Numbered from the stretch's first letter, positions 55 to 28,092 are shown. The stretch is 64,000 nucleotides of DNA from an uncultured bacterium (GCA_964535215.1 CAZHST010000013.1:7758-71757), one strand, 5' to 3'. Notes: generated by a model from the letters alone, not told the origin. Made by a program: numbers and translations.

Positions 55-1152
55 CTACAGGACCCTAAGGGTGTCACGTAATGCCTGGATGAACTGGTCG
101 TTCTCGCTTGGTGTCCCGATCGTGACCCGGAGGTGGGTCTTCAGACCGTACCTGGCCATCGGATGGATCATCACCCCTTTCCTCAGAAGGGCCTCCGCAA
201 CTTGAACGGCGTCTTTTCCAACATCCACGAGGATGAAGTTCGCACTTGTCGGAACAAAGGGAAGCCCCAAGTTTTGAAACCCCTTGTAGAGCACCCTTTT
301 TCCCGCTTCGTTGAGCTGCCTGGAGAGGCGGAGGTGATCCGTGTCATGAAGGGCGGCTAAAGCGGCGACCTGGGCCAGCCCGTTCACGTTGAAGGGTTGC
401 CTGACCCGGTCCAGGAGCTGGACCAGGGCTGGCGGGGCCATCCCGTAACCGATCCGCAAACCCGCCAAACCGTGGATCTTGGAAAAGGTTCGTAAGACAA
501 GGATCAGGCGGCCCCGCCGTATCTCCTGGAGAAGGTCAGGCTTCACCTCCTCAGGCATATACTCGTAATAGGCTTCGTCAAACAGCAGGATGACCTTCTC
601 CGGAACCCGATCCAGGAAGGCCTCGATCTCTCGGGGTGGAACACAGGTTCCGGTGGGGTTGTTGGGATTACCGATGAAGATCATCTTGGTGCGATCGGTG
701 ATCCGTCGAGCCATCTCATCCAGGTCATGCCGGTACTCCTTCAAAGGGACCAGAACCAGCCGTGCGCCTGTTGCCCTGGTCGCCCTCCTGTAGACCATGA
801 AGGCCGGATCGGCGATAATGGCTTCGTCCTGAGGGCCAAGGAAGCACCGGGCGGCGAGATCGATCAATTCACAGCTTCCATTGCCAAGGAGGAAATGCGC
901 CGGATCGAGATCGAGCCTTTCAGCCAAGGCCCGCTTGAGGGCGTGGCCTCCTCCATCAGGGTACCTGTTGATTCCCTGAAGGGCTGACTGGATGGCTATG
1001 ACGGCTAAAGGTGAAGGACCAAGAGGGTTCTCGTTGGAGGCAAGTTTCACAAGGTCCCCTCCCCCCAGTTCCTTCTTGACCTCCTCGACGGGCTTGCCAA
1101 GGTTAGAGGGGGAAAGGTTTCTGAGATGCGGGGAAGCCAGCTCTTCGATCAT
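55..1152 (-). CDS. hisC: Histidinol-phosphate/aromatic aminotransferase (class I/II PLP enzyme)
   Basis: KLASNENPLGPSP, LGNGSCELI, GNPNNPTG, DEAY and RTFSKIHGLAGLRIG (PLP lysine) motifs; ATG overlaps the upstream TGA (ATGA). Confidence 0.9.
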   Translation of the reverse strand: MIEELASPHLRNLSPSNLGKPVEEVKKELGGGDLVKLASNENPLGPSPLAVIAIQSALQGINRYPDGGGHALKRALAERLDLDPAHFLLGNGSCELIDLAARCFLGPQDEAIIADPAFMVYRRATRATGARLVLVPLKEYRHDLDEMARRITDRTKMIFIGNPNNPTGTCVPPREIEAFLDRVPEKVILLFDEAYYEYMPEEVKPDLLQEIRRGRLILVLRTFSKIHGLAGLRIGYGMAPPALVQLLDRVRQPFNVNGLAQVAALAALHDTDHLRLSRQLNEAGKRVLYKGFQNLGLPFVPTSANFILVDVGKDAVQVAEALLRKGVMIHPMARYGLKTHLRVTIGTPSENDQFIQALRDTLRVL

Positions 1153-3743
1153 CGTAGGACGTGAACCTTTCCCGAGTAGCCGTCGATCTTGACCCTGGTC
1201 CCCTCCGGGAGCAAGAGGGTGGCCTTTTCCAAGACCACGGCCGGGATACCACTCTCGCGGGCCAGGCAGGCGCCATGGGCGAGGATGCCCCCTGTCTCCA
1301 GGATGAGTCCTGCTGCCTTCCTGATGAGCGGGAACATGCCTAAGTTCGCTGACCTTGCTACGATCACGACATCTTCGCTGACCTCCTCGAGACCCTTGGC
1401 GAAATCCAGCTCCTGGGGATCTATGATCCTCGCCGTTCCCACGGCTTCACCGGAAGAGACGGGGCTGCCGTGGAACTGTTGCACGGTCTCGAAGGTCGGC
1501 TTCTGACCGATCCCTTCCAAGGCATCCTCGAAGATCACGTTTGGCATCCGTCCGTGCTTTGAGAGATGAAGGGCCAACCGCCGCTCTTCTTTCCGTTGCT
1601 CTATTCTTCCTCTGATGGAATCGAAGGAGCTGAGGACCTCGGGGAGCTCTCGCGGATAGAGGTAAAAGAGGTCATCCCGTTGAAGTCCAAGTTTCTCCGC
1701 CAAGGCCAGCAAGGCCCTGCGGATCAAGGCGTACTCTGCGGTCAGGTAGTACTTCACGGTCTCCCGAAGGGGGAGGTAACGCTGGGCATAGGCGAGATCC
1801 TGAAACAGTTCCTGGATGAGGAGGGGGTTGACCCCCACCTGGGCCAGGCGGGTCCGAACCTCCTCTTCCCCTTTTCTCCTTTTTCGGGTCTGTTCGATGG
1901 CTTCGTGGAAGGGGTCCCGGGCCCCCTTCTTGAATTCTTTCACCATCCCTTCGAGGATTTGAGGATCCTCGGCGATCCTGGGGAGGGAGATCTCCAGCTC
2001 GTTGGGGGCGAGGTGACCGTAGACCTCCAGGAATTCCCTGGGGGACACCTCCCCCTGAGCGAGTCGTGCCAGGTCCCTTGTCTGTTGACCGATCTTGCTT
2101 TCCTCTAATCCCCTGAGCAGATCCCCGATCAGCCTTTCCCCTTCTTCCGGGAAGAAGGCTGTCATCTTCTTCTTGAACCTCTCGACGAAGAAAAAGCCGA
2201 GCCTGGCGGCGATGACAAAGTGGACTGCGGTAAAGGTCCTGAGATGCTCCAGATACGAGTGGATCTTTTCAACGATCTCCTCAGGAGAGACCTGGGAGGG
2301 GTCGTCGTCCCTTTCCCGGGCCAGATAGCGTTGAAGGGCTGGCTCCACCTTAAAGGAGAATTCATCGAGGTAACCCTCGGCCCTTTCAATCATCCCGGCC
2401 AGAAACTCCAGGAAGCGGGCGTGATACCTTCGCCCCCTTTTCGGGCCAAAGCGGGTGATGGCTTCTTCAAGGGTCAGACTTTGCTCGTAGAGGCCGAGCT
2501 CCGGGTAGTTTGCCAGCCGGGGGTTTGCTTTCACCTTCTTGATATAGCCTTCGATGTCAAGGGGGAAGCCAATGTGGAAGGTGGCTGCATCAAGCTCCAG
2601 GTTGAAGTAAGGATGGCCGCAGATTAGCTCGAAGAGGCCTTCGGAGGTCTTGTCGTCGAGGTCGTAGCCCAGATGCCGTCGGCCGATCTGGATCCCACCC
2701 TCTTCAGCGAAGATGTAGGTGAAGATCCCGAAGCTCATCGGCGTCGGGGTCGGGAGGATCTCCCCGATGTTCCCGTTGCTGTAAACGGCCTCGCTACAGG
2801 TGAGCCTCCCCTTTTGCCTCAGATCGGTGATCCTGGAGCGGAGCCGCTCCACCTCCTTCTTCCGATACCGCTCGATTTTTACCTCAAGCGGTTCATGGCC
2901 GATCGGGACCGGTCTCGACTGGACGATGGCAAGCTTTCCACCAGCAAAGGCGAATTCGATGTCCTGGGGCCCTTGAAAAAGGGCCTCGAGGGTCAGGCCT
3001 TGTTGAACCAAAAGGGCCAGCTGCTCGGGTGTAAGGGTCGGCCGATTCCTCCTCTCTTCCGGCACCGGGACCTCGCCCTTCAGGCAAAGCATGGAGGTTT
3101 TCTCAGAAAGTCTCTGATCAAGGATCCGTCCGTTCCTGCCCACACGGAAGACATCGCCCTGGACCTTTCCGGAAACCAGCGGCTCGCTTAAACCAAAGAC
3201 CGAGTTGATGAACAATTCCTCCCGGTCCAGCGTGATGGGGTTCAAGGTGTACATCACGCCTGAGACCTCGGCGTCGATCATCTCCTGGACCACGATGGCC
3301 ATCCCGTAGCCCTCCTGGTCCCCATCGAGGCCCATGCACCTCCGGTAAAGATCCGATCTAACGGTTTCCAGCGAAAGGAAACACTCCTTGATCGCCTCCA
3401 GGAGTTCTTCCTCCGAGCTCACGTTCAGGCGGGAGAGGTAGATGCCGGCAAAGCTTGCATGGGGGAGGTCTTCGTGGGTCGCGGAGCTTCTTACCGCAAC
3501 ATGATGAAAAGCTCGTTCTCGATAGGCCGCCAGGATCCTGTTCTTCAAAGGGTCGGGGATCTCGATCCCCCCGGAAGGGGAGCGCCCCGCTTTCCTGAAG
3601 GCGTTGGTCGTGATGACAAAGCCCCTCGGCACGGGAAGGCCGGCCTTGATCATCAGGCCCAGGTTCAAGGCCTTGACCCCAACCAGGGAAAGGTCCCCTT
3701 CCCGAACATCCCCGAGATCAAGGAGGTCCAACTCGTCAGCCAC
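1149..3743 (-). CDS. PEP/pyruvate-binding (PPDK_N) plus PEP-utilising swivel domain protein; rifampicin phosphotransferase/phenylphosphate synthase-like architecture
   Basis: N-terminal G.KA.NL, VAVRSSA..ED...SFAG and VQEM..A.VSGV, DIEFA motifs; central helical region; C-terminal GGILAHGACLARESGIPAV phospho-His motif; GTG start with SD. Confidence 0.85.
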   Translation of the reverse strand: MADELDLLDLGDVREGDLSLVGVKALNLGLMIKAGLPVPRGFVITTNAFRKAGRSPSGGIEIPDPLKNRILAAYRERAFHHVAVRSSATHEDLPHASFAGIYLSRLNVSSEEELLEAIKECFLSLETVRSDLYRRCMGLDGDQEGYGMAIVVQEMIDAEVSGVMYTLNPITLDREELFINSVFGLSEPLVSGKVQGDVFRVGRNGRILDQRLSEKTSMLCLKGEVPVPEERRNRPTLTPEQLALLVQQGLTLEALFQGPQDIEFAFAGGKLAIVQSRPVPIGHEPLEVKIERYRKKEVERLRSRITDLRQKGRLTCSEAVYSNGNIGEILPTPTPMSFGIFTYIFAEEGGIQIGRRHLGYDLDDKTSEGLFELICGHPYFNLELDAATFHIGFPLDIEGYIKKVKANPRLANYPELGLYEQSLTLEEAITRFGPKRGRRYHARFLEFLAGMIERAEGYLDEFSFKVEPALQRYLARERDDDPSQVSPEEIVEKIHSYLEHLRTFTAVHFVIAARLGFFFVERFKKKMTAFFPEEGERLIGDLLRGLEESKIGQQTRDLARLAQGEVSPREFLEVYGHLAPNELEISLPRIAEDPQILEGMVKEFKKGARDPFHEAIEQTRKRRKGEEEVRTRLAQVGVNPLLIQELFQDLAYAQRYLPLRETVKYYLTAEYALIRRALLALAEKLGLQRDDLFYLYPRELPEVLSSFDSIRGRIEQRKEERRLALHLSKHGRMPNVIFEDALEGIGQKPTFETVQQFHGSPVSSGEAVGTARIIDPQELDFAKGLEEVSEDVVIVARSANLGMFPLIRKAAGLILETGGILAHGACLARESGIPAVVLEKATLLLPEGTRVKIDGYSGKVHVLR

Positions 3744-3788
3744 GCTCCCTCCCTTACAGGTTTTCCGTTGGGAAAGATCGTGGTGAGA

Positions 3789-4754
3789 CTACGCCGGCAC
3801 CACGGCCTCGGAGAGGCGGCGGCGATCCCGCTTCCCCCGTTCAACCACCCATCGCTTTTTCAGCTCTTCCCATTCGGGGAGGAACCGTTGGAAGGAAACG
3901 CCGTCAGGGGCCATCAAGGCCTCATCAAGGACCTTTCTGTAGAACGCGGTAATATCCCGCATCAAGCCCTCAGGATGTTCCCTTCCCGGGATCTTCAGGT
4001 AATCCACACCGATCCTGACGTAGTCGGGAAGCTCCCAGAGGAGGAGGGTAGGGTTGGTTTTTAAAGAGACTTTCTTCCGGGTAGGGCCGTCCACGCCCGA
4101 GACGTCCCATCCCGCCTGACAAACCCGGTGGCAGCTCCCCCCCCGGTTTGAGCTCCCCAGGTAGTGATCCTTGCCATCGGCGTCCACAACGTGTTCGAAC
4201 TTAAAGTAGCTGGACATGGTACACTTGCCGGGGCAGATGATTCCCCGTTGAAGAGGCTGGAACAGGAAGGCCTCCACGCGGACACCCACCTCCTGCTTGA
4301 TTCTCTTGATGTCGGCGATCTCAACCCCCCACCGGTAGGAGAGGATGATAAAGGTAGCCCCGATTTCCCGGTAGAATCGGATGTCCTCCCGGTTGGCCAC
4401 AGCGCAGGTGACGCTGGCGTGGATGTCCACATGGGGGAAATGCCTCCGCACCTGCCTGATACACCCGGGATCGTTCATGATGAAACCGTTCAAACCCCAG
4501 GTGCTGTAGGTCTCCACCTTCTTTAACAGGAGGGGGATCTCCTTCGGACCGGGCAGGGTGTTCAAGGCGACCTTTACCTCTTTCCCCGTGTCCGAAGCGG
4601 CTTCGTAGACCTCCTTGATCTCCTCATCCGTCAGCTCATCCTCGGGAGGCCGCCGGCTCCAACCCATGGCGCCGACGTAGACGGCATCAGCACCCGCCTC
4701 CAGGACGAGGAGGGCCATCTCCTTGGTCCCTCCGGGGGCCAAAAGCTTCGTCAT
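3789..4754 (-). CDS. U32 family protein, UbiU-like paralog 1 (putative Fe-S hydroxylase)
   Basis: LLAPGG, GADAVYVG..GWSRR, DIHASV, and the Cys cluster ICPGKC...SNRGGSCHRVC; LKIPGR. Confidence 0.85.
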   Translation of the reverse strand: MTKLLAPGGTKEMALLVLEAGADAVYVGAMGWSRRPPEDELTDEEIKEVYEAASDTGKEVKVALNTLPGPKEIPLLLKKVETYSTWGLNGFIMNDPGCIRQVRRHFPHVDIHASVTCAVANREDIRFYREIGATFIILSYRWGVEIADIKRIKQEVGVRVEAFLFQPLQRGIICPGKCTMSSYFKFEHVVDADGKDHYLGSSNRGGSCHRVCQAGWDVSGVDGPTRKKVSLKTNPTLLLWELPDYVRIGVDYLKIPGREHPEGLMRDITAFYRKVLDEALMAPDGVSFQRFLPEWEELKKRWVVERGKRDRRRLSEAVVPA

Positions 4755-4782
4755 CGTTTCCCTCCTAGGAAGCCTTCAGCTA

Positions 4783-4858
4783 TTAGCCATCAGCGGTCAG
4801 GTTTGAGGAGGTTCAAGGTTCAACGTTGAACTTTGAACCGTTTTTGGCTGACGGCTAA
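4783..4858. repeat. Nested palindromic intergenic element built from heptamer-like repeats
   Basis: Outer arms ttagccatcagc (4783-4794) and gctgacggctaa (4847-4858); inner near-perfect palindrome ggttcaaggttcaacgttgaactttgaacc (4810-4839). Confidence 0.7.
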
Positions 4859-5811
4859 GGGCTTATGTTCGTAAAGGTCCCTGGGGGGATCGTCGCAACC
4901 CCTAAGGCCTCCGATCCCACCAGCCGCACCAGCTCGTCGAAGAAGAGGTGGATCTCCCTAATGGTCTCTAGATCCCAGGATGTCATCACCCGGGACCGCC
5001 AGCTCTCTCTTAACGCATGGAGGACTTTGGTCTCGATCCCGCCAAGCACCTCTCGCCCGATCTCCTCCCAGATCGTGTCATCCTCTTTCATGTATGCTGC
5101 CGCCTCACAGTAGGCCTTGATAAACCCTTGGAGGAGGTCAGGGTGCTTGGCTAGGCATTCATCTTTCACGGTGAAGGCCGTGATGGGGATCATCCTTTTC
5201 ACCCCAAGTTCCCCGATCAAGTCCTGGACATCCAGGACCTGCCGGTAGCGCCCCGTGGCCACCAGGGGGGGGATCAGTTGCCAAAACTGAAAAGCGCCAT
5301 CGACCTTTCCCTCTTCGAGAAGCTGGACAAGGGCGGTCTTTGAGAGGGCCTCGACGACCCTTCCCTCTTCCTGGGGATCGAAGCCGTAGAGCTTCCGGCA
5401 GGCTCCTCTCGTGATCAGCCAGTTTTTGTCCAGGAGTCGGACAACCCCGATTCGTCTTCCCCGGAGATCCTGTAGGTCCCGGATAGGGGAGTCGTGGGGG
5501 GCGACCAATCCTCCGACGATCCTCCCGTAGGGGAAGACGGCGGTGATGGGAACCCCCCGAGTCCGATGACGGGCGATGGAGATCCAATCAATATCCACCA
5601 GGTCCGCCGTTCCGTCCTGAAGGGCGATCTCAAAGGATTGGAGGGATCCTTTGACCTGATCCTTCAGGAGGGTCATCTCCAGGAGAAAGCCCTGCTTTCG
5701 ATCCAGGCCAAGTTTTTTCAGGACGTACATCAGCCACCGGGGGCTTCCATGGGGCTCAAAGGCCGCTTTTAGGACCCCGGCTCCCGATGAGGGCTGGGTC
5801 AGCGCCGGCAT
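4855..5811 (-). CDS. NMT1/THI5/SsuA-like PBP-fold protein with no signal peptide (paralog 1)
   Basis: DLVDIDWISIARHR, DLQDLRGRRIGV and G.VDGAFQFW motifs; start moved to ATG 5811 (SD, 2 nt after the upstream stop); no hydrophobic N-terminus. Confidence 0.75.
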   Translation of the reverse strand: MPALTQPSSGAGVLKAAFEPHGSPRWLMYVLKKLGLDRKQGFLLEMTLLKDQVKGSLQSFEIALQDGTADLVDIDWISIARHRTRGVPITAVFPYGRIVGGLVAPHDSPIRDLQDLRGRRIGVVRLLDKNWLITRGACRKLYGFDPQEEGRVVEALSKTALVQLLEEGKVDGAFQFWQLIPPLVATGRYRQVLDVQDLIGELGVKRMIPITAFTVKDECLAKHPDLLQGFIKAYCEAAAYMKEDDTIWEEIGREVLGGIETKVLHALRESWRSRVMTSWDLETIREIHLFFDELVRLVGSEALGVATIPPGTFTNISP

Positions 5812-5812
5812 C

Positions 5813-6775
5813 TCATCCCCTTCCAACCGCTGCCTGGGAGAGGAGAAGGCCTGCCCGCCGGCTCCTCTCCATGGTCCACCGCTTTTTCAGCTCCTGCCAC
5901 GGAGCAACATACCGTTCCAGGGAGACTTCGCCAGGGGAGGCTTTGACCTCGTCCACGACCCCTCGATAGAATCGGACCAGGTCCCTAACCAGCTCTACGG
6001 ATCGCTCCCTCCCTTGGATTTTCAGGTACTCAACCCCTGCCTTGATGTACCCGGGCACCTCCCACAGCATGAAGGTTGGATCGGATCGTAAGGTGGTCTT
6101 TCTTAGCGTCCCCTCGGGGGAAAGGGTGAACTCCCATCCTGCCTGACAGACCCGGGAACAGCCTCTGGCCCCCCGGTTGGCGCTCCCGAGAAAGCCCTCC
6201 TCGATCCCATCAGACCAGTCTTTGTAGACAAGATAGCTGGACATGATGCACTTCCCCGGGCAGACGAGCCCCCCTTGAAGGGGTTGGAAGAGAAAGACCT
6301 CAAGTCCCACATCCAGTTCGGCCTTGATCGCTCTAACCTCCTCGACGCTCAAGCGGTAGGGGAGGATCACGAAGGTCGCGCCCAGATCCCGGTAAAACCG
6401 GATATCCTCCCGGTTTGTCAGACCGCAGCCGACACTGGTATGGATGCCAATAAAGGGGAAGTGGCGCCTCACCTCCACCAGGCACCCTGGATCGGCGATC
6501 ATGAGCCCTGAGACCCCCCAGTCCACGTACTGCTCCACCTTCTTCAAGAGAAGCTTCATCTCCGTCGGACCAGGCATGGCGTTGATGGCGACCTTCACCT
6601 CCCGCCCAAGGGTCCGGGCGAACTCGTTCAGCTCCTTGATCTCCCCATCCTTCAGATCCAGCTGGTAGGATCGCCGACTCCATCCAAAGGCCCCCACGTA
6701 GACAGCCTCGGCCCCCTCCTCCAAGACCGTGTAGGCCATCTCCAGGGTCCCACCAGGAGCCAGAAGCTTCGCCAT
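5813..6775 (-). CDS. U32 family protein, UbiU-like paralog 2
   Basis: LLAPGG, GAEAVYVG..GWSRR, VCPGKC...SANRGARGCSRVC and LKIQGRER; SD gaggagg. Confidence 0.85.
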   Translation of the reverse strand: MAKLLAPGGTLEMAYTVLEEGAEAVYVGAFGWSRRSYQLDLKDGEIKELNEFARTLGREVKVAINAMPGPTEMKLLLKKVEQYVDWGVSGLMIADPGCLVEVRRHFPFIGIHTSVGCGLTNREDIRFYRDLGATFVILPYRLSVEEVRAIKAELDVGLEVFLFQPLQGGLVCPGKCIMSSYLVYKDWSDGIEEGFLGSANRGARGCSRVCQAGWEFTLSPEGTLRKTTLRSDPTFMLWEVPGYIKAGVEYLKIQGRERSVELVRDLVRFYRGVVDEVKASPGEVSLERYVAPWQELKKRWTMERSRRAGLLLSQAAVGRG

Positions 6776-6785
6776 GGTTTCCTCC

Positions 6786-7742
6786 TCACGCCTTTGCCCG
6801 GGCGATAAGGCGCTCGTCCCGTCTGTTCCGCTCGGTGATCCATCGCCTTTTCAGTTCCTCGATCTCTGGAACGTACCTTTCAGGAGAGAACCCATCGGGA
6901 GAGGTCAGGATCTCATCCACCACCTTCCGGTAGAACCGGACGATGTCCCGGACGAGGGTCTCGGACCGGTCCCTCCCGGGAACCTTGAAGTACTCAACGC
7001 CCGCCTTGATGTAATCGGCCAGCTCATGGAACCAAAGGCGGGGGTTCCCCTTCAGGATGGTCTTCCTGGAGAGGGGTTGATCGTCCGTGGCCACATCCCA
7101 CCCGACCTGGCAGATCCGGAGACAGTCCCCGCCCCGGTTGGCGCTCCCGTAGAAGTAATCCTTCCCCTCGGCATCCACCCAATGCCTGAAGCTGAAGTAG
7201 CTCGACATGGTGCATTTCCCGGGGCAGATGATCCCCCCTTGGGTGTCCGTCCTGAAGAGGAAGATCTCCAGGCCCACATCAATCGTCTGCTTGATCGCCT
7301 TGACCTCCTCCAGCCACATCCGGTAAGGGAGGATGATGTAGGTGGCCCCCATGTCCTTGTAGAATTTGACGTCCTCAGCGTTTGTCAGACCCGTCCCGAC
7401 GCTGACGTGGATCGCGATCTCGGGGAAATGTTTCCTGACCTGGACCAGGCAGCCGACATCCGAGATCATGAACCCGGAGACCCCCCAGCCGATATACCGG
7501 TCCACCTTCTTCAGGAGGAGGGGGATCTCCGTAGAACTCGGCATCGTGTTCAGGACCACCCTGACCTCCTTCCCTTTGGTCTCGGCGAAGGCCACCAGAT
7601 CCCGGATCTCCTCGTCTTTCAGCTCTACGTCAGAGCCCCGCCGACTCCATCCCAAGACGCCGACGTAGACGGCATCGGCCCCTTCCTCCAACACCGAGTA
7701 GGCCATCCGCATCGTCCCACCAGGGGCCATCAACTTCGACAT
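6786..7742 (-). CDS. U32 family protein, UbiU-like paralog 3
   Basis: LMAPGG, GADAVYVG..GWSRR, ICPGKC...SANRGGDCLRIC and FKVPGRDR. Confidence 0.85.
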   Translation of the reverse strand: MSKLMAPGGTMRMAYSVLEEGADAVYVGVLGWSRRGSDVELKDEEIRDLVAFAETKGKEVRVVLNTMPSSTEIPLLLKKVDRYIGWGVSGFMISDVGCLVQVRKHFPEIAIHVSVGTGLTNAEDVKFYKDMGATYIILPYRMWLEEVKAIKQTIDVGLEIFLFRTDTQGGIICPGKCTMSSYFSFRHWVDAEGKDYFYGSANRGGDCLRICQVGWDVATDDQPLSRKTILKGNPRLWFHELADYIKAGVEYFKVPGRDRSETLVRDIVRFYRKVVDEILTSPDGFSPERYVPEIEELKRRWITERNRRDERLIARAKA

Positions 7743-7759
7743 GGTCTTCCCTCCCTTCT

Positions 7760-8686
7760 TCAGGATCGTGTGCCCTGAAGCAGAAGCTCACGGCCGATAT
7801 AGTCCTGCCCGGATCTCCCGAAGGAGTAGCCGTTGCAGAAGCCTAACGGGGCTAGGGATCGAAGCTCTGTCAACCAGTGAGGGGTGCAGAACTCCTCTCC
7901 CGCCATGGCCCTTTGGAGGGCCTCGCGGTAGATGCCCCCGACCATCTTCACGTAACCAGGATCTTCACCCAGGGTATGGATGTAGAAGGTGTCAAAGCCC
8001 TGTTTCACGAGGAGGTCCAGGTGTTCCAGCAGGCAGAGGTCCTTCCCGCTCAAGTTGACCCTCCCGATGTTCTTCATGTGCCACTCCTCGTGGGTCAGCC
8101 AATGCCCCTGGGCACAACCCTCCTCGCAGTGGGCGGGGACTTTTTTCGTGTATTCGGTGAGGAAGCAGGTGGCCGAGATCACCAGGGGGATCTTGCCGTG
8201 GAGGGGGAGGATGACCTGGATAGGGGTATGATCCCTGATGTAGAGGATCTCCTCCAGGCTGAGCTCAGCGTTCGGGAAGACCCGCACGACCCCGTAGCCT
8301 TTCAGGACCCTGGCCGTCTCGTCGGTGTAGAGGTTGCCGAAGACCCCTAAATGGATAGGGATCTCACCCCTGAGTTCCCTGACGATCCTCAAAAGCCCCA
8401 TGCTGTGGACCTCAATGCCATCAAGGGGGAGGTCTCTCGACTCCTGCACAAGGACCCTAATCCAGGGAAGATCGCTGTCCTTCGGGATCGCATAAAGACT
8501 CAAGTAGCATTTCTTACCCATGGCCTTCACCCGGTAGACCCCTTCTCGGAGCTCTTGGAGGCACGAGCTGAAGTTGCCGGGGTAGAGGGGGCAGGTGAAG
8601 TCGCCCAGGTAGAGGGCGTCATAGGCTGAAAAGTCATAGGCTTGGAGCTTCTCCATGTTGGGGACATGGGTCGCTAACTCAAACAT
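7760..8686 (-). CDS. U32 family protein, UbiV-like
   Basis: LYLGDFTCP resembles UbiV YLGE.VC; HGKIPLVISATCF...HCEEGC resembles UbiV G.LPLA.S.RCF...C..CC. Confidence 0.75.
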   Translation of the reverse strand: MFELATHVPNMEKLQAYDFSAYDALYLGDFTCPLYPGNFSSCLQELREGVYRVKAMGKKCYLSLYAIPKDSDLPWIRVLVQESRDLPLDGIEVHSMGLLRIVRELRGEIPIHLGVFGNLYTDETARVLKGYGVVRVFPNAELSLEEILYIRDHTPIQVILPLHGKIPLVISATCFLTEYTKKVPAHCEEGCAQGHWLTHEEWHMKNIGRVNLSGKDLCLLEHLDLLVKQGFDTFYIHTLGEDPGYVKMVGGIYREALQRAMAGEEFCTPHWLTELRSLAPLGFCNGYSFGRSGQDYIGRELLLQGTRS

Positions 8687-8762
8687 TGTCGCCTCCTCCA
8701 GGATTTTTCGCCCTGTTTAGAGCAGGGATCACCAGCCTTTATAGGTTAGCCTATAGGGAGTG

Positions 8763-8777
8763 GCAAATACTGTTCCA
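8763..8777 (-). promoter_or_regulatory. Sigma-54 (-24/-12) promoter for the U32 operon
   Basis: Minus strand reads TGGAACAGTATTTGC (GG-N10-GC), about 77 nt upstream of the ATG at 8686. Confidence 0.7.
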
Positions 8778-8860
8778 TACCTAACCGGAGAAGGCTGATG
8801 CATCTGGATTATTTTGGTAGTGAAGATGTCCTAAAGGCAGAGGGGAAGAAGGGAAGAGAA

Positions 8861-8894
8861 TGGGGCATTTGACCAACAAGGGCATTTCACCCAC
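8861..8894. promoter_or_regulatory. Putative tandem upstream activator sites for an NtrC-family enhancer-binding protein
   Basis: tggggcatttgacca (8861-8875) and caagggcatttcacccac (8877-8894); both resemble sites at 20724-20757. Confidence 0.55.
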
Positions 8895-8934
8895 CCTTCG
8901 TTTCAATCTGAAATCTAAAATCCCCTGCCCGCAG

Positions 8935-9642
8935 TTAGAGGAGATTATATCTGAAGGCAAGGACGAGGGCTTCGAGTTTGGTATGCACCCCAAGCTTTCC
9001 CAGGATCCTCTGGGTGTGATTCCTCGCGGTGGCTGTGCTGATGTGGAGGGCTTCGGCGATCCCCTTGGCGGTTTCACCCCTGGCGATGAGCCTCAAGACC
9101 TCCTGCTCACGAGGGGTCAGGGCCCGAAGCGGGGAAGGAGGGTCTAAAGGGCGGGCCGGTTCCTTCTGAACCAACAAGGTGGCTTGACCGAGGAGGGTAT
9201 GGATCCGTTCCAGGAGCCTCTCCGTCGCCACGTGGTTGGTGACATCTCGGAAGAGGTGGACCATAGTGAACAGGTCCGGAGACATGGATGGAACGACAAT
9301 GACGCTCACATTGATCCAGATCGTCCGGCCTGTCTTGGTTCGGGTCAGGAGGTCGCTCGTCTCGACAGGTTCCCCTTTCTTCGCCGTTTCAAGGAGAGGG
9401 CACCCTGGACCACATAGCCGTTGCCCGGTGCGGCTCCTCCCGCCAAAGATCTCATAGCAGGGCTTCCCGAGCACCTCGCCGGCCTGGTACCCCAGGAGCC
9501 GCTCGGCCGCCTGGTTCCAAAGGATGACCCGCTGGGTCTGGTCAATGGCGAAGGCACCATCGGCAGCCCTCATAAACATCTCCAGAATGGCGGGGAGGCC
9601 ACCTCCGATGCCAGGGGACTTCTCGTTGACGGCCTGACGCAA
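8935..9642 (-). CDS. PAS domain plus LuxR-type HTH transcriptional regulator
   Basis: N-terminal PAS (AFAID...WNQAAERLLGY...GKPCYEIF); C-terminal LTPREQEVLRLIARG...IAEAL.IS..TARNH...ILGKLGV. Confidence 0.88.
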   Translation of the reverse strand: MRQAVNEKSPGIGGGLPAILEMFMRAADGAFAIDQTQRVILWNQAAERLLGYQAGEVLGKPCYEIFGGRSRTGQRLCGPGCPLLETAKKGEPVETSDLLTRTKTGRTIWINVSVIVVPSMSPDLFTMVHLFRDVTNHVATERLLERIHTLLGQATLLVQKEPARPLDPPSPLRALTPREQEVLRLIARGETAKGIAEALHISTATARNHTQRILGKLGVHTKLEALVLAFRYNLL

Positions 9643-20654: not shown

Positions 20655-20670
20655 AGCATACTTTGTGCCA
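20655..20670 (-). promoter_or_regulatory. Sigma-54 (-24/-12) promoter for the creatininase-to-LuxR operon
   Basis: Minus strand reads TGGCACAAAGTATGCT (GG-N10-GC). Confidence 0.75.
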
Positions 20671-20684
20671 GGGAGAAGGAGGGC

Positions 20685-20697
20685 TAAGTTCTTGAAT
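20685..20697 (-). promoter_or_regulatory. Possible IHF site between the sigma-54 promoter and the enhancer
   Basis: ATTCAAGAACTTA versus consensus WATCAANNNNTTR (one mismatch), in the expected position. Confidence 0.35.
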
Positions 20698-20723
20698 TTA
20701 AAGGGGACCATTGGACAAGGGGG

Positions 20724-20757
20724 TGGGGGATTTGGCAAAGTGGGTGAGATACCCCAC
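20724..20757. promoter_or_regulatory. Putative tandem upstream activator sites for an NtrC-family enhancer-binding protein
   Basis: tgggggatttggcaa (20724-20738) and the inverted repeat GTGGG-tgagatac-CCCAC (20740-20757). Confidence 0.6.
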
Positions 20758-23730: not shown

Positions 23731-24600
23731 CTACCTGAGAGAAGAGGGAGAGGGGATTCCGTACCGGTCCGTGATCCGTTGAAGGACTCCCTCGTTCCTC
23801 AAACCATTGAGCGTCTGATCGAGGGTCGTTTTCAGGTCCTTGTCCCCCGCCCGAACGGCGATGACAAGGTTCCCCTGACGGCCCGGCTCGGGAACATAGC
23901 TCAGGTATGGGTTCGTGAGGATGATCTCATCGGTACCCACCTGTTCTGCGGGGACCCCCAGGAAGAAATCACAGCGCTTCTGAAGGAGGGAGTTTCCGAG
24001 GGCCCGGGTGAACCCTTTTCGGGTATCCACCCAGAAGTAGTTGGTACGGAGGCCCAAACGCTGGGTGATCTCACGGGCAAGCTCAACATCGAAACCTGTG
24101 GGCTTTGGGTCCTTGGTGGAAAAGGGGGGGTTATTGGGATCCGCACAGACGGTCATGACCCCTGTTTCCTTGGCCTTCGCCAGCGCCCCATAGTGTTGGG
24201 ATCGGAGGTAGGCGATGATCTTCCAGATCTCGTCCGAGGTGATGCGACCAGCGAAGGCGCCCATTTGGGTCCCTGGCCGTCCAGCGGCAATACTTGCGAA
24301 CACGTCCCCATCCCTCCCCCCGAACCGCCAGAAGTCGTCGGTCAGATCAGGGCCTTTTGCCCCTCTGCCCCCTGCTCCGTGGCAGAAGATGCAGAGACGC
24401 TGGTAGAGGACCTTCCCCTCCTCGATTGCACCAGGGTCCCCCTCGAAAGGGTTGGTGAGGCCTGCTGGTTCGTCCTGACCGAAAGCGATTTGCCCCCCGG
24501 GTGGAAAGGGCCAAAAGGTGAAGGCCAGAGGCAAGACGATCATCCCTCCCAGGAGGGCTCTTTTCGGTGGCCAGGCATGAAACGGGCTCTTTCGATGCAT
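23731..24600 (-). CDS. Fusion of an XoxG/MxaG-like cytochrome c and a single-lobe MxaJ/XoxJ-like domain
   Basis: Signal-like N-terminus, CIFCH heme motif, GPDLTDD.W and TQMGAF; then VCADPNNPPFS...CDF...IAVR.GD..LK..LDQ. Confidence 0.8.
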   Translation of the reverse strand: MHRKSPFHAWPPKRALLGGMIVLPLAFTFWPFPPGGQIAFGQDEPAGLTNPFEGDPGAIEEGKVLYQRLCIFCHGAGGRGAKGPDLTDDFWRFGGRDGDVFASIAAGRPGTQMGAFAGRITSDEIWKIIAYLRSQHYGALAKAKETGVMTVCADPNNPPFSTKDPKPTGFDVELAREITQRLGLRTNYFWVDTRKGFTRALGNSLLQKRCDFFLGVPAEQVGTDEIILTNPYLSYVPEPGRQGNLVIAVRAGDKDLKTTLDQTLNGLRNEGVLQRITDRYGIPSPSSLR

Positions 24601-24660
24601 GGGGAACTCCGCCTCCTCCCTTAGAATGCCTCACAAAACTCACCGCCCAGGCCTAAAGGG

Positions 24661-24700
24661 CGCAGAGAAAAACTTGGGACTTTCCTTAGCGTTCTCTGCG
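24661..24700. repeat. Intergenic REP-like inverted repeat
   Basis: cgcagagaa (24661-24669) and ttctctgcg (24692-24700). Confidence 0.45.
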
Positions 24701-24729
24701 TCTCTACGGTTTTGATCGGCGCTCTTAAT

Positions 24730-25632
24730 CTAGTCGAAGGGGGCATAGAACGGCACCCCATATTTTGCCAGGATTTCTCGGACCTGTCCACTCTTTACTA
24801 ACCGATCAATGACCTGATTGATGGCCTCCTTTAAGTCCTGATCCTCCTTTCTCACCGCGATGGCGATGTTCCACCGCATCTCCGGCTCAGGGGTGTATCC
24901 TTCGAGCAGCTTCAGGCCGCTCTCTGGGTGCAACTTGATCCACCATCCGGCGGTCGGGGCCCAAAGGAGGGCCACATCCGGTGCCGGGGAAGGAGCCGGC
25001 GATCCGGGGGGTGACGATATCCACGTTGAGACCCCTGGTGGTGGAACCTCCCCTTTTTGCATCGCCTCGAGGGCTTCCCTTCCGTTGCGGAAGAGGGCCC
25101 GTTTGTAACCCTTGTAGAAGAGGTAGCCGTCGGCCGGGGTCGTCATCTCAACGCCGATCCTTTGGTCTTTGAGCTCCTGCAGACTCCGAATCTCTGGAGC
25201 TCCTCCGCGGACGACCAGCACAAACCCTGTCCCAAAATAGGGCTTGGTGAGCGCTAACCCTTTCTCCTCCATCTCTTCTTCCATTTCCGATCCGGTCGGA
25301 AGTCCCATGAAGAAGTCGCATTTCCTTTGCTGGATTGAGGTTCGGAGGGCCCGCCCAAGCCCACCCCGGGTGCCGGTATCAGCCCAGAAGTAGGTCACCC
25401 GGAGCCCTAAGCTCCTGCCTATTTCATCCGCGATCTCCACGTCGAATCCGGGACTGCCAGGGTTGTTGCTGGAGAAAGGGGGGTTATAGGGATCCACGCA
25501 AGCAATTAAGGAGCCCCGCTCCCTGACCTTCGCCAGGGCGTCTGCATCGGCCAAGGGGGGGCTTATCATCGGAACGACCAGCAACGGCGCAAAGGTCATC
25601 CCCAGAAACCGTAGAGGGTTCACCGTCTCCAT
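24730..25632 (-). CDS. MxaJ/XoxJ-like periplasmic binding protein of quinoprotein module 1
   Basis: ACVDPYNPPFS, GFDVEIA, KCDF and IAIAVRKED..LK.AI motifs; signal peptide from ATG 25632. Confidence 0.82.
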   Translation of the reverse strand: METVNPLRFLGMTFAPLLVVPMISPPLADADALAKVRERGSLIACVDPYNPPFSSNNPGSPGFDVEIADEIGRSLGLRVTYFWADTGTRGGLGRALRTSIQQRKCDFFMGLPTGSEMEEEMEEKGLALTKPYFGTGFVLVVRGGAPEIRSLQELKDQRIGVEMTTPADGYLFYKGYKRALFRNGREALEAMQKGEVPPPGVSTWISSPPGSPAPSPAPDVALLWAPTAGWWIKLHPESGLKLLEGYTPEPEMRWNIAIAVRKEDQDLKEAINQVIDRLVKSGQVREILAKYGVPFYAPFD

Positions 25633-25723
25633 CTCCTTTCCTGCCGAAACGCACGAAGGGAGGGCAGGAGATCCCTCCCGCCCTCCCCCGTACGGCCCAC
25701 GCCATTTCGGATCCAAGGCGGCC

Positions 25724-27445: not shown

Positions 27446-27603
27446 TGTTTCCTCCTCATACCTTCTCGTGAACAGCGCTCAACACTCTCCCTAGCTCTCT
27501 TGGGCCCAACCCCCTTCCACCCCCTTTCAGATCCTAAGCTCCTTGCTGAAGGGAGGTTCCTTCCCCATTATTAGCCGTACCAATCCCTGGCCGAGGTAGT
27601 TTA

Positions 27604-27632
27604 AATTTACAACACTGTTCTATTTCAGTCAA
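27604..27632 (-). promoter_or_regulatory. Sigma-70-type promoter for dehydrogenase 1
   Basis: TTGACT-N17-TAAATT; the spacer contains the palindrome AACAGTGTT. Confidence 0.6.
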
Positions 27633-28082: not shown

Positions 28083-28092
28083 CGTCTAGGCC

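Follow-up and report, generated by a model that had tools for sequence, protein, structure and literature searches.

A conserved, uncharacterised operon encoding four U32 proteins and a PqqT-like binding protein in an NC10 bacterium

What chemistry is carried out by an operon that combines one UbiV-like protein and three further U32 proteins with a periplasmic-binding-protein (PBP) fold, a phosphotransferase and an aminotransferase? This operon is found in an NC10 (Methylomirabilis-type) bacterium. The whole stretch of DNA analysed, hereafter the window, is 64 kb long (64,000 nucleotides). ORF calls on the window gave seven tightly packed ORFs, all on the minus strand and read from 8686 to 55. 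All the genes of the original prediction are thus present, on the minus strand, within the limits it had proposed. In the order of transcription, the features are:

7760..8686, minus strand: V, the V-like U32 protein, 308 aa (PF01136, 1.6e-29)
6786..7742, minus strand: Ua, first of three U32 paralogs, 318 aa (PF01136, 8e-35)
5813..6775, minus strand: Ub, U32 paralog, 320 aa (PF01136, 6e-32)
4855..5826 (probable start 5811), minus strand: PBP, a PqqT-like PBP-fold protein, 318-323 aa (NMT1/THI5 match)
4810..4839, no strand: near-perfect palindrome GGTTCAAGGTTCAACGTTGAACTTTGAACC (plus-strand reading), 13-pair stem with G-T pairs allowed, in the 100-nt gap between the PBP and Uc genes
3789..4754, minus strand: Uc, U32 paralog, 321 aa (PF01136, 1.2e-28)
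1149..3743, minus strand: phosphotransferase similar to Rph and PEP synthase, 864 aa (PPDK_N and PEP-utilizers)
55..1152, minus strand: PLP aminotransferase of the HisC family, 365 aa (Aminotran_1_2 and TIGR01141)

The gaps between successive genes are of 17, 10, 1, 100, 45 and -4 nt. The palindrome lacks a U-run on the coding strand and may form a hairpin in the mRNA or be bound by a protein.

A similar gene set in near-identical order was detected in 65 loci from species-representative genomes and in 67 metagenome loci. These approximately 130 loci are distributed among at least four phyla and include NC10, Alpha-, Beta- and Gammaproteobacteria, Acidobacteriota and "delta" metagenome-assembled genomes. 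The cluster is rare, being carried by about 65 of 185,579 species representatives. The core order (U)-PBP-Uc-kinase, where the kinase is the phosphotransferase, is kept across these loci: a U32 gene lies directly upstream of the PBP gene in the loci that contain it, and Uc is placed between PBP and the phosphotransferase in complete clusters. From a count on 136 loci, V is present in 136, Ua-type hits in 121, Uc in 98, PBP in 92, the kinase in 83 and the aminotransferase in 80. The proteobacterial module contains in addition an SDR, a phosphatase and an FAH-family hydrolase, present in 52, 42 and 39 of the 136 loci. The NC10 clusters have neither SDR nor phosphatase, and FAH occurs in only one of their loci. 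This arrangement is far beyond chance and is that of a real, ancient module. No literature on this cluster was found, and the operon is a conserved, uncharacterised one. The wider proteobacterial module (phosphatase, SDR and FAH hydrolase), the sigma-54 control and the PQQ connection are features that the original prediction did not contain.

All four U32 proteins match PF01136 with scores of 100-121 bits, for a gathering cut-off of 22.4. An alignment of 39 U and 15 V sequences displays Cys columns conserved in at least 90% of sequences, at positions matching the ligands of the E. coli proteins, and the four conserved Cys of each protein are predicted to bind a [4Fe-4S] cluster. In V, the residues C32, C174, C187 and C191 align with C39, C180, C193 and C197 of E. 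coli UbiV, established as ligands by experiment (PMC6747719). The motif CXnCX12CX3C, whose first Cys is located far upstream of the U32 domain, is specific to UbiV, and the bipartition joining V and UbiV in the U32 tree has a bootstrap value of 92%. Assignment of V to the UbiV equivalog itself (NF047965) was rejected, with 59 bits for a cut-off of 275.

The proteins Ua, Ub and Uc share 55-58% pairwise identity (58% between Ub and Ua) and only 20-24% with V. Their conserved Cys are C173-X3-C177-X29-C207-X3-C211 in Ua, 172, 176, 206 and 210 in Ub, and 174, 178, 208 and 212 in Uc. This pattern, CX3CX29CX3C, is a variant of the general U32 motif, and its four Cys align with those of TrhP and RlhA. 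The AF2 model of Ua (pLDDT 82.5) has the U32 structure 5D88 as top PDB match. In the tree, the U proteins are monophyletic and form their own clade apart from UbiU, TrhP and RlhA, with a bootstrap value of 94%. Two further assignments were rejected: UbiU (NF047963), with 97-123 bits for a cut-off of 440 and a fourth ligand at the TrhP-type position, so that the UbiU set C169/C176/C193/C232 has no equivalent of C232; and TrhP/RlhA, with 102-112 bits for a cut-off of 534.

The original prediction had distinguished one UbiV-like protein from three UbiU-like ones. The distinction between the V and U types holds, as does the UbiV-like identity of V, given the ligand pattern and the grouping with UbiV. 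The U proteins do not specifically resemble UbiU: in the phylogeny that it called for, built against UbiU, UbiV, RlhA and TrhP, the U clade excludes E. coli UbiU. Within that clade, Ua groups with the first U gene of the proteobacterial clusters (bootstrap value of 65%). Ub and Uc from NC10 do not cluster with the proteobacterial Ub and Uc, so that three fixed roles for the U proteins are not proven. The pairing of V with the U proteins and the three regiospecific hydroxylations put forward in the original prediction are inferences. Concerning the canonical ubiquinone genes, neither UbiT (SCP2) nor UbiA, UbiD or UbiX was found among the window ORFs scanned (most of the larger ORFs of the 64 kb), in agreement with the earlier remark that UbiT and a prenyltransferase are absent. 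Methylovirgula possesses a separate canonical ubiT-U32 set besides this cluster.

The nature of the substrate is approached through PBP. Its best sequence match in the PDB is PqqT (9B1U, E-value 9e-27, over the full length), the next match having a value of 4e-4. The AF2 model (pLDDT 92.3) was compared with Foldseek: PqqT structures are the top three PDB hits (TM 0.86/0.93, rmsd 1.8 A), and the next family reaches 0.69. The residues of PqqT that touch PQQ are T41, G112, K142, N143 and Y188 (PMC11331073). Among about 85 PBP orthologues, S/T41, G112, K142, N143 and W144 are conserved, and position 188 is aromatic in most sequences and Pro in some alphaproteobacterial ones. These contact residues are missing from TauA, SsuA, PBP3, other NMT1 proteins and two haloarchaeal paralogs. 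No signal peptide was detected in PBP (maximal 12-aa hydropathy of 0.7, against 2.7-3.5 in the true PqqT orthologues found in flanking regions), which indicates a cytoplasmic location. PBP is thus a cytoplasmic homologue of PqqT and a candidate binder of a PQQ-type ligand, and we propose that it holds or presents a soluble substrate. The soluble substrate of the original prediction gains support from such a binding protein. A second cytoplasmic PqqT-like gene, 57% identical, is present in the window at 13914-14882, within the neighbouring 12-gene operon.

The phosphotransferase is composed of an ATP-grasp domain, a central domain and a C-terminal swivelling His domain. It matches PPDK_N (1e-65, residues 61-283) and the PEP-utilizers mobile domain (1e-14, residues 789-858), with a weak Rph_4th match, and His823 is included in the motif GGILAHG. 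The top PDB matches are the rifampin phosphotransferases 5FBS and 5HV1. The NCBIfam scores for Rph, RedH and PigC (287, 237 and 234 bits) are all under the cut-offs (999-1350). The Rph equivalog (NF041857) was rejected on this basis (287 bits for 999), and so was PEP synthase (223-312 bits for 598-976), whose C-terminal PEP/pyruvate-binding barrel is absent. The aminotransferase scores 324 bits with the TIGR01141 hisC model (cut-off 276.55) and contains the PLP-lysine motif TFSK225. The HisC family also includes aromatic aminotransferases, and this gene accompanies the U32 cluster and not his genes. The closest NC10 relatives have it at the 3' end of the cluster; Proteobacteria and other NC10 loci have it at the 5' end.

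The region upstream of V and the adjacent part of the window contain the following elements:

8762..8777, minus strand: -24/-12 promoter of sigma-54 type TGGAACAGTATTTGCC, with GG-N10-GC spacing, some 75 nt before the start codon of V
8796..8815, minus strand: IHF-like site AAAATAATCCAGATGCATCA, by resemblance to the consensus only, which lies between the promoter and the activator-type repeat
8861..8896, minus strand: upstream activator-type repeat GGGTGGGTGAAATGCCCTTGTTGGTCAAATGCCCCA, whose place upstream of V is conserved among 13 NC10-type loci
8935..9642, minus strand: PAS-LuxR one-component regulator (PAS_9 and GerE), directly upstream of the operon
20655..20738, minus strand: second sigma-54 element TGGCACAAAGTATGCT and same activator half-site TTGCCAAATCCCCCA, by pattern match
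20786-22195, minus strand: NtrC-type sigma-54 activator (Response_reg, Sigma54_activat and HTH_8)
22206-23726, minus strand: histidine kinase (HAMP/HisKA/HATPase)
23731-24600, minus strand: cytochrome c fusion, within the PQQ dehydrogenase gene sets
24730-25755 and 28093-28902, minus strand: XoxJ-like SBP_bac_3 genes, within the same gene sets
25724-27445 and 28922-30622, minus strand: PQQ-dependent alcohol dehydrogenases (TIGR03075, 607 and 638 bits for a cut-off of 480; Pfam PQQ), in two gene sets within 23731..30622

The sigma-54 element is kept as TGGCAC-N5-TGCA in related NC10 loci, and the alignment of NC10 upstream regions gives the consensus AAATCAAnnnnTTACATCA for the IHF-like site. 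The repeat at 8861..8896 is likely to be the binding site of a sigma-54 enhancer-binding protein. Its half-site TKGYCAAATSCCCCA has only two copies in the window (0.04 expected), both upstream of sigma-54 elements. The second element heads the neighbouring 12-gene operon (20540-8935), and this sharing of a sigma-54 element and an activator half-site suggests that the two operons form one regulon. The NtrC-type activator and the histidine kinase are candidate regulators of both; a 64%-identical activator adjoins the cluster in two other loci, and homologues of the PAS-LuxR protein adjoin it in ten NC10-type loci. The PQQ dehydrogenase gene sets are on the same strand as the U32 operon.

PQQ genes are also found beside the module elsewhere. 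The operon pqqABCDE adjoins the cluster in loci L031 and L090, which differ in their arrangement. Secreted PqqT orthologues are encoded beside it in L053, L054 and L130, and PQQ-dependent dehydrogenases near it in L031, L038, L048 and L054, in addition to the two in the window. These associations involve seven loci and about five independent events in 673 kb of flanking sequence, for 0.5-1.35 expected, and PQQ genes beside the module are commoner than chance. Haloarchaeal homologues of PBP are near a PQQ dehydrogenase as well. Both V and the U proteins have close homologues that are named Methylomirabilis. Ca. M. oxyfera uses a PQQ methanol dehydrogenase, and its pqq genes are reportedly missing (PMC6094997). 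The PqqB and PqqC steps of PQQ synthesis are O2-dependent; a route without O2 has been postulated (PMC8048578; PMC12423496).

From these data, we propose, with a probability of about 0.4, that the operon encodes a U32 hydroxylase/oxidase system that needs no O2 and has a soluble PQQ-type intermediate as its substrate. The substrate would be a soluble aromatic polycarboxylate, neither a prenylated quinone nor RNA. Each U32 subunit would carry a [4Fe-4S] cluster and, by analogy with UbiV-UbiU, the UbiV-type V would pair with each of the three U paralogs. The PqqT-like protein would hold and present the substrate, the role thought to be that of UbiT/UbiJ for ubiquinone intermediates. The oxygen donor is expected to be organic and could be prephenate, which is the donor of UbiUV (PMC10990095). 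The HisC-type aminotransferase may remove the phenylpyruvate by-product or install an amino group, and the Rph/PigC-like enzyme may transiently phosphorylate an oxygen of an intermediate. In Proteobacteria, the dual-specificity phosphatase, the SDR and the 2,4-diketo-acid (FAH) hydrolase would finish the chemistry. The product would most likely be PQQ or a close PQQ-type quinone, the module replacing without O2 the ring oxygenations and oxidations of PqqB/PqqC. The sigma-54 promoter would turn on the operon together with the neighbouring operon, beside two PQQ-dependent alcohol dehydrogenase sets. If this is true, anaerobic methanol and alcohol oxidisers may have here their way to PQQ without oxygen.

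Several observations are against PQQ. The identity between PBP and PqqT is only 24-28%. Known PQQ chemistry has no evident use for the kinase, aminotransferase, phosphatase, SDR or FAH, and the FAH of the proteobacterial clusters is closest to a 2,4-diketo-acid C-C hydrolase, which has a catabolic look. No E-X3-Y motif of PqqA was detected in the window, and PqqB, PqqC, PqqD and PqqE gave no tblastn matches there, these genes being found beside the cluster only in L031 and L090. The source of a Glu-Tyr type substrate in NC10 is thus left unexplained by the window, where neither a PqqA-like ORF nor a PqqB-E homologue is present. No PQQ genes were seen in the flanks of the Sideroxydans and Ferrovum clusters. 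Another candidate for anaerobic PQQ synthesis, the cluster pqqAED-puuD-serC-pyrD, has already been proposed (PMC12423496).

A rather doubtful alternative is the O2-independent biosynthesis of another aromatic cofactor or precursor, for example a ubiquinone ring precursor made from tyrosine or another quinone, in which the U32 enzymes would act as hydroxylases on a soluble aromatic acid, and trimming of the side chain would fall to the aminotransferase, the SDR and aldehyde/diketo-acid enzymes. Canonical ubiU, ubiV and ubiT are located at most 8 kb from the cluster in two loci, with ubiD/ubiX as well in alphaproteobacterial loci, and beside a decayed copy of the cluster in three others. They adjoin it in two independent lineages, the same number as the pqq-operon adjacencies, although PQQ-related genes as a whole are the commoner neighbours and the proximity of U32 paralogs may only reflect a shared anaerobic regulation. 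Most carriers of the full cluster are Alpha-, Beta- and Gammaproteobacteria that make ubiquinone, some Alphaproteobacteria have no known 4-hydroxybenzoate route (PMC12423496), and a HisC-type aminotransferase suits the conversion of tyrosine into 4-hydroxyphenylpyruvate. However, the respiratory complexes of NC10 fall in low-potential, menaquinone-type clades (PMC4122944), no ubi gene is present among the window ORFs scanned, and PBP keeps the residues that bind the carboxylates and ring of PQQ.

The anoxic catabolism of an aromatic or phenolic acid appears unlikely. Successive O2-independent hydroxylations would here give a polyhydroxylated ring, dearomatised by the SDR and opened by the FAH-family beta-diketone hydrolase, the kinase activating a phenol in the manner of phenylphosphate synthase. 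The FAH scores 445 bits with the model of 2,4-didehydro-3-deoxy-L-rhamnonate hydrolase, a C-C hydrolase, and with the SDR it is a conserved member of the proteobacterial cluster; both SDR and phosphatase are nevertheless lacking in NC10, where FAH is limited to a single locus. The regulators (LysR, two-component and PAS-LuxR) and the sigma-54 control are of the kind usual in inducible catabolic operons, and aldehyde dehydrogenase genes lie near the cluster in several loci, but genes for CoA ligase, ring reductase and beta-oxidation are not conserved near it. The carriers include the aromatic degraders Aromatoleum, Azoarcus and Georgfuchsia; against these stand NC10, Sideroxydans, Ferrovum, Thiorhodococcus and Thiodictyon, which are autotrophs or specialists. 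Autotrophs among the hosts are known in NC10, Sideroxydans, Ferrovum and purple sulfur bacteria, and a biosynthetic role suits these hosts better than a catabolic one. The stoichiometric use of the donor would also be very costly if this donor were prephenate, as for UbiUV (PMC10990095).

The synthesis of a specialised metabolite (a catechol or hydroxylated aromatic siderophore, a pigment or a signal), with the Rph/PigC-like enzyme as ATP-dependent condensing enzyme, is quite improbable. The PigC and RedH ligase scores of this enzyme nearly equal its Rph score, aminotransferases, SDR and phosphatases are common tailoring enzymes, and the cluster is rare; but NRPS, PKS, transporter and resistance genes are not conserved with it, a cluster that keeps its gene order and content from phylum to phylum and occurs in streamlined autotrophs is unusual for secondary metabolism, and the PqqT-type pocket is conserved. 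Finally, RNA hydroxylases related to TrhP/RlhA are scarcely credible: the TrhP model scores are similar to those of UbiU and the Cys patterns align, but the U proteins form their own clade, have only PF01136 in 318-321 aa, without the C-terminal extensions of E. coli TrhP and RlhA, which are much longer, and have obligatory partners (PBP, small-molecule kinase and aminotransferase) that would make no sense for an RNA substrate.

The proposed PQQ-type system can be compared with several known ones. With TrhP (tRNA) and RlhA (rRNA), the operon U32 proteins share the U32 domain and four Cys at aligned positions; contrary to these hydroxylases, they have no C-terminal RNA-associated domains and occur, as a separate clade, in a small-molecule enzyme context. 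The 864-aa enzyme resembles Rph and the prodiginine ligases PigC/RedH, which attach a phosphate to an oxygen atom in a small molecule, by its ATP-grasp, central substrate domain, C-terminal swivelling His domain and GGxxxH motif. It differs by its low scores (234-287 bits for cut-offs of 999-1350) and by its pairing with a dual-specificity phosphatase in Proteobacteria.

The closest comparison for the U32 proteins is with E. coli UbiU-UbiV-UbiT (Pelosi et al. 2019; Kazemzadeh Ferizhendi et al. 2024). Both systems have U32 proteins with [4Fe-4S] ligand Cys, a V-type subunit with a far-upstream first ligand encoded beside U-type subunits, an accessory substrate-binding protein (predicted here) and a presumed organic oxygen donor. 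Unlike the E. coli system, the operon has three U paralogs instead of one, in a separate clade with CX3CX29CX3C and without the C232 ligand. Its accessory protein is a PBP-fold PqqT homologue, whereas UbiT is an SCP2 lipid binder; no prenylated substrate is proposed; a kinase and an aminotransferase are added (with phosphatase, SDR and FAH in Proteobacteria); and all equivalog scores are far under the cut-offs.

Concerning PQQ, PBP shares its fold with PqqT, the periplasmic PQQ-binding protein of Methylobacterium extorquens AM1 (PDB 9B1U, 9B1V and 9OOZ), and keeps the PQQ-contacting S/T41, G112, K142, N143, W144, aromatic 188 and W189. Unlike PqqT, it has no signal peptide, is 24-28% identical and is encoded inside an enzyme operon rather than near an importer. 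With PqqB, an iron enzyme of metallo-beta-lactamase fold, and PqqC, a cofactor-less oxidase, which both need O2, the U32 proteins have no sequence relationship; the analogy proposed is only functional: in either case the ring of an intermediate derived from Glu-Tyr would be hydroxylated and oxidised. The cluster pqqAED-puuD-serC-pyrD of Hyphomicrobium denitrificans and other denitrifiers (PMC12423496) is, like the present one, a candidate for anaerobic PQQ synthesis that includes an aminotransferase, but the U32 cluster has wholly different enzymes and no pqqA, pqqD or pqqE of its own. In H. denitrificans that cluster adjoins fab genes and ubiXDTUV (PMC12423496), and in Methylovirgula a KAS III gene and ubiD/ubiX/ubiT/U32 are found within a few kb of the U32 cluster.

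The cluster represents a novel form of the U32 systems for O2-independent hydroxylation, conserved across many lineages and presumably acting on a soluble substrate, and the evidence points, without proof, to PQQ or a PQQ-like quinone as its product. The seven co-directional open reading frames of the original prediction (minus strand, 8686 to 55) were confirmed, and their families are supported by Pfam and NCBIfam. In transcription order they are:

7760-8686, minus strand: V, UbiV-type protein with the U32 domain PF01136 (first)
6786-7742, minus strand: Ua, U32 domain PF01136 (second)
5813-6775, minus strand: Ub, U32 domain PF01136 (third)
4855-5826, probable start 5811, minus strand: PBP, PBP-fold protein of the NMT1/THI5 type (fourth)
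3789-4754, minus strand: Uc, U32 domain PF01136 (fifth)
1149-3743, minus strand: kinase, phosphotransferase of 864 aa with PPDK_N, the mobile His domain of PEP-utilising enzymes and a weak Rph_4th match (sixth)
55-1152, minus strand: class I/II aminotransferase (last)

From V to the aminotransferase, the intergenic gaps are of 17, 10, 1, 100, 45 and -4 nt. The aminotransferase exceeds the NCBIfam hisC trusted cut-off (324 vs 276.55 bits). In an identical contig of a public run it is followed by rnc and smc, so the operon ends at this gene. The only long gap, between PBP and Uc, contains a near-perfect palindrome of 30 nt (4810-4839; 13-pair stem, G-T pairs allowed), with no terminator-type U-run on the coding strand. 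The close homologues are labelled as NC10/Methylomirabilales, Ca. M. oxyfera and Ca. M. lanthanidiphila among them.

O2-independent hydroxylation is a recently recognised activity of U32 iron-sulfur proteins. Ua, Ub and Uc are 55-58% identical among themselves and 20-24% identical to V. The cysteines were aligned with those of E. coli UbiU, UbiV, TrhP and RlhA. Residues C32, C174, C187 and C191 of V align onto C39, C180, C193 and C197 of UbiV, which are the experimentally shown [4Fe-4S] ligands and form the UbiV-specific motif CXnCX12CX3C (PMC6747719). The three U proteins share the pattern C173-X3-C177-X29-C207-X3-C211 (Ua numbering), aligned with the four cysteines of TrhP and RlhA. A bootstrapped neighbour-joining tree was calculated from 61 sequences; since it is distance-based and includes only four reference sequences, its deep placements are provisional. 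The V-like proteins are monophyletic (100%) and joined to E. coli UbiV (92%), and with the aligned ligand motif this grouping makes the label "UbiV-like" fair. The label "UbiU-like" holds only broadly, for a U-type partner: Ua, Ub and Uc form a single clade with UbiU, TrhP and RlhA outside (94%), the fourth ligand of UbiU, C232, has no counterpart in them, and none of the four U32 proteins comes near the equivalog cut-off for UbiU, UbiV or TrhP. The original inference is partly supported, by the V/U division and, for a soluble substrate, by the cytoplasmic PqqT-like protein described below; the U proteins have no specific affiliation to UbiU. The Ua of the window clusters with the first U of the proteobacterial clusters (65%). 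The proteobacterial Ub and Uc are each monophyletic (100%), and the NC10 Ub and Uc fall outside both. The Ua sequence had no match among solved structures; a fold search with its model found 5D88. As the Cys loops of this model have a pLDDT below 50, it is uninformative on cluster geometry.

The cluster was detected at 65 loci in a scan of one genome per species and at 67 further loci in a metagenome scan. In the genome scan the carriers are Methylomirabilota, Proteobacteria, one Acidobacteriota MAG and "delta" MAGs. The Alphaproteobacteria are represented by Rhodoblastus acidophilus, R. sphagnicola, Roseiarcus and several MAGs, to which the separately found cluster of Methylovirgula sp. HY1 is added. 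The Betaproteobacteria comprise Aromatoleum/Azoarcus (six species), Georgfuchsia, Sulfuritalea, Sideroxydans, Ferrovum and Novimethylophilus, and the Gammaproteobacteria comprise Thiorhodococcus, Thiodictyon, Motiliproteus and Neptunomonas. The gene order is V-Ua-Ub-PBP-Uc-kinase-AT (AT, aminotransferase) in the closest NC10 relatives and AT-Ua-V-Ub-PBP-Uc-kinase in Proteobacteria; other NC10 loci have the aminotransferase upstream of V. Three extra genes are usual in the proteobacterial clusters: a dual-specificity phosphatase preceding the aminotransferase (42 loci), an SDR immediately past the kinase (52 loci) and a FAH-family hydrolase (39 loci), whose nearest family is a 2,4-diketo-acid C-C hydrolase (445 bits; cut-off 500). 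Aquificota/Thermodesulfobacteriota and related metagenome contigs carry a three-gene form, U'-V-U, without PBP, kinase or aminotransferase (loci L025, L037, L040, L043, L046, L065, L104, L108 and L114), in some cases adjoined by an AMP-dependent ligase. The U proteins of this form take a basal position in the Ua/Ub/Uc clade. The V-like family is rare, with only 235 clusters at 90% identity among 5.8 billion proteins.

Several individual loci were also recorded. A contig of 3.9 kb (L010, DATMXF010000111.1) filed under a Patescibacteria MAG carries an NC10-type copy (65-69% identical), and this assignment is probably a binning error. Three metagenome contigs (L099, L100, L128) contain a decayed cluster in which remnants of the kinase, Uc and the third U are squeezed into about 3 kb; canonical ubiU (61% identical to E. 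coli), ubiV and ubiT follow immediately downstream. In Methylovirgula sp. HY1 (L005, CP073764, 1-8000), ubiT, a canonical U32 gene (ubiU/V), ubiD, ubiX, a nitroreductase, a TcuA/TcuB-like flavoprotein pair and a KAS III gene are located a few kb from the cluster; this neighbourhood resembles the 'anaerobic biosyntheses' island of Hyphomicrobium denitrificans (PMC12423496).

Compared with all PDB sequences, PBP has strong matches only with 9B1U, 9B1V and 9OOZ (E 9e-27, full length), the next being a taurine-binding protein (4e-4). All three are structures of PqqT, by which Methylobacterium extorquens AM1 binds PQQ in the periplasm (PMC11331073). The AlphaFold model of PBP (pLDDT 92.3) superimposes on PqqT with TM 0.86/0.93 and an rmsd of 1.8 A; the next family, Thi5, gives a TM of about 0.69. 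The residues of PqqT in contact with PQQ, T41, G112, K142, N143 and the stacking Y188 (numbering of the paper, chain + 27), are S, G, K, N and F, respectively, in the window PBP. In about 85 cluster orthologues the first two positions are S/T and G, K is invariant, N is lost in only two, and the last position is aromatic, or Pro in some Alphaproteobacteria. The D-K-N-W and aromatic-W motifs are missing from E. coli TauA and SsuA, from the third NMT1 protein of the window and from two haloarchaeal paralogs. The cluster PBPs have no signal peptide, which is present in true PqqT orthologues. A cytoplasmic PqqT-type pocket within an enzyme operon suggests, by analogy with UbiT in the UbiUVT system, that PBP may be a carrier or presenter of a PQQ-like polycarboxylate. 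The fold also covers cytoplasmic enzymes (Thi5, DszB, 4,5-dihydroxyphthalate decarboxylase), so a catalytic role may likewise be considered.

Haloarchaeal homologues (45% identical to PBP) are arranged in tandem, with a PQQ dehydrogenase 5 kb away. In Haloplanus halophilus (L141, CP098514, 7929-11958 and 16395-18122), four tandem NMT1-type genes are 5 kb from a PQQ-dependent dehydrogenase and a halocyanin-like gene, and two of the four encode the D-K-N-W motif without a signal peptide. This array indicates that cytoplasmic PqqT-like proteins exist in haloarchaea too, with U32 genes absent nearby.

PQQ genes were found beside the cluster at seven loci. These represent about five independent events, the flanks totalling 673 kb. 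At L031 the cluster is preceded, about 4 kb upstream, by a genuine pqqA-pqqB-pqqC-pqqD-pqqE operon, and at L090 a pqq operon of different arrangement is directly downstream. Secreted PqqT orthologues (38-41% identical to 9B1U) adjoin the cluster at L053, L054 and L130, and PQQ-dependent dehydrogenases lie less than 10 kb from it at L031, L038, L048 and L054. With 3-8 PQQ-related loci per genome, 0.5-1.35 events are expected; the Poisson P for five events, a rough estimate, is of roughly 2e-4 to 1e-2. The orthologues of L053 (2337-3329; Roseiarcus) and L130 (3356-4348; unassigned metagenome contig with a closely similar protein) have Asp at the position of M. extorquens PqqT Lys142. The engineered change K142D creates a lanthanide-PQQ site in PqqT (PMC11331073), and these orthologues, carrying the same change, may be natural lanthanide-PQQ binding proteins.

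The window itself encodes two PQQ-dependent alcohol dehydrogenases above the TIGR03075 cut-off (607 and 638 vs 480 bits), on the same strand as the U32 operon. The features outside this operon are:

8762-8777, upstream of V: sigma-54 -24/-12 element, TGGAACAGTATTTGCC
about 8796-8815, upstream of V: IHF-like site
8861-8896, upstream of V: activator-type repeat
8935-20540, minus strand: tightly packed 12-gene operon, headed by a second sigma-54 element and ending at the PAS-LuxR gene above the U32 operon
20786-23726, between the 12-gene operon and the dehydrogenase genes: NtrC-type activator and its kinase
23731-30622, minus strand: two paralogous PQQ-dependent alcohol dehydrogenase gene sets, with XoxJ-like binding proteins and a cytochrome c-SBP fusion

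The dehydrogenase region also contains a small c-type cytochrome ORF (about 27700-28080, CHNCH motif) and, before both dehydrogenase genes (about 30750-30780 and 27600-27632), the sigma-70-like motif TTGAC(A/T)..AAC.GTGTTGTA. Positions 30821-64000 are occupied by housekeeping genes (alaS, leuA, asd, acyl-CoA ligase, truA, leuS, holA, murJ, ilvD, ilvB, ilvC, miaA, aroA, cmk, rpsA, sppA and an adenylate cyclase-domain protein). The genes for alcohol oxidation and the U32 operon thus stand apart as one block on a single strand (55-30622).

The three blocks upstream of V are conserved in an alignment of 13 NC10-type loci. A small ORF (MGQxTHxGAFAPLPILxR) seemingly conserved there was rejected, as the DNA alignment shows these sites and no peptide. 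The activator half-site TKGYCAAATSCCCCA has only two copies in the 64 kb (expected 0.04), the second (20724-20738) being ahead of the other sigma-54 element (20655-20670). Its occurrence at both operons suggests that they form one regulon. The 12-gene operon encodes a creatininase/MftE-like protein, two luciferase-like oxidoreductases, an NMT1 protein, a TfrA/NadB-like flavoprotein, an aldehyde dehydrogenase, ABC-2 exporter parts, an HbpS-like protein, a 138-aa protein without family, the PAS-LuxR regulator and a second cytoplasmic PqqT-like protein, 57% identical to PBP. It is conserved only in the closest relative (L008), so a functional tie to the cluster across taxa was rejected and it is a presumably co-regulated neighbour in this organism only. 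Ten NC10 loci retain the PAS-LuxR gene next to the cluster, and in two others the cluster adjoins a sigma-54 activator of 64% identity.

The literature provides a motive for the link to PQQ. Ca. M. oxyfera is reported to employ a PQQ methanol dehydrogenase and yet to be devoid of pqq genes (PMC6094997). O2 is required for PQQ synthesis; according to the same source as for this requirement, a so far unknown route without O2 "cannot be excluded" (PMC8048578). Klebsiella pneumoniae and Pseudomonas aeruginosa do not produce PQQ anaerobically, and for denitrifiers another cluster has been put forward as a candidate (PMC12423496). UbiU-UbiV is a heterodimer with two [4Fe-4S] clusters and prephenate as oxygen donor (PMC6747719, PMC10990095). 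By analogy, V would pair with the U paralogs, and the ring held by the PqqT-like protein would be hydroxylated or oxidised. The HisC-type aminotransferase would clear the phenylpyruvate left from prephenate or, alternatively, install an amine. The Rph/PigC-like kinase (His823) would phosphorylate an oxygen of the intermediate, and the phosphatase would then strip the phosphate. To reach PQQ from the Glu-Tyr cross-link, two ring oxygens have to be added and four two-electron oxidations carried out (PqqB/PqqC chemistry), and an O2-free replacement would have to provide all of these. We give a probability of about one in four to the reading that the cluster is the long-postulated O2-independent PQQ route, in which three U32 hydroxylases, one UbiV-type partner and a cytoplasmic PqqT paralog replace PqqB/PqqC and, in NC10, the module builds PQQ with the kinase and aminotransferase, without a PqqA peptide.

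Several observations stand against PQQ as the product. The window search and the literature give no PqqA, PqqD or PqqE for the cross-link in NC10. A scan of the window with the strict motif E-V/I-T/S-x-Y was empty, so a hidden PqqA-like precursor was rejected; genuine pqqA was found only in L031. Near L080, an NC10 locus, a radical SAM gene first taken as "PqqE-like" is MoaA, and a MoxY-type methanol sensor at L031 was discarded, its weak LapD_MoxY_N match (E 7e-4) not being seen in four related kinases. PQQ chemistry as known offers no step for the kinase, aminotransferase, SDR or FAH, and the FAH looks like a catabolic C-C hydrolase. In the cluster flanks of Sideroxydans and Ferrovum no PQQ gene was seen. 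Canonical ubiUVT adjoins the cluster in two lineages, as often as a pqq operon. A different anaerobic cofactor pathway, for instance to a ubiquinone ring precursor, is unlikely, and the menaquinone-type bc complex of NC10 argues weakly against it. An anaerobic route of aromatic catabolism is still less probable, given carriers known as autotrophs and the cost in prephenate. A specialised metabolite is improbable as the product. RNA modification is very unlikely; TrhP and RlhA of E. coli are longer, with C-terminal extensions missing from the four cluster U32 proteins.

If the link to PQQ is true, it would explain how denitrifying and phototrophic methylotrophs sustain the PQQ-dependent oxidation of methanol and alcohols without O2, and the PQQ source of NC10 methanotrophs reported without pqq genes. 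The cluster could also serve as a marker by which anaerobic quinoprotein metabolism is recognised in metagenomes, and as a means of producing PQQ anaerobically. To our knowledge, just three U32 substrates are established so far, namely ubiquinone intermediates, tRNA U34 and rRNA C2501, and our literature search found no specific publication on this cluster or on new U32 functions. The module would add a fourth, soluble, substrate class and a natural system in which regiospecificity and prephenate-donor chemistry can be studied in vitro with water-soluble substrates. Compared with the UbiUVT system, it would be the first case of several U paralogs per V subunit, with PBP as a candidate presenter analogous to UbiT.
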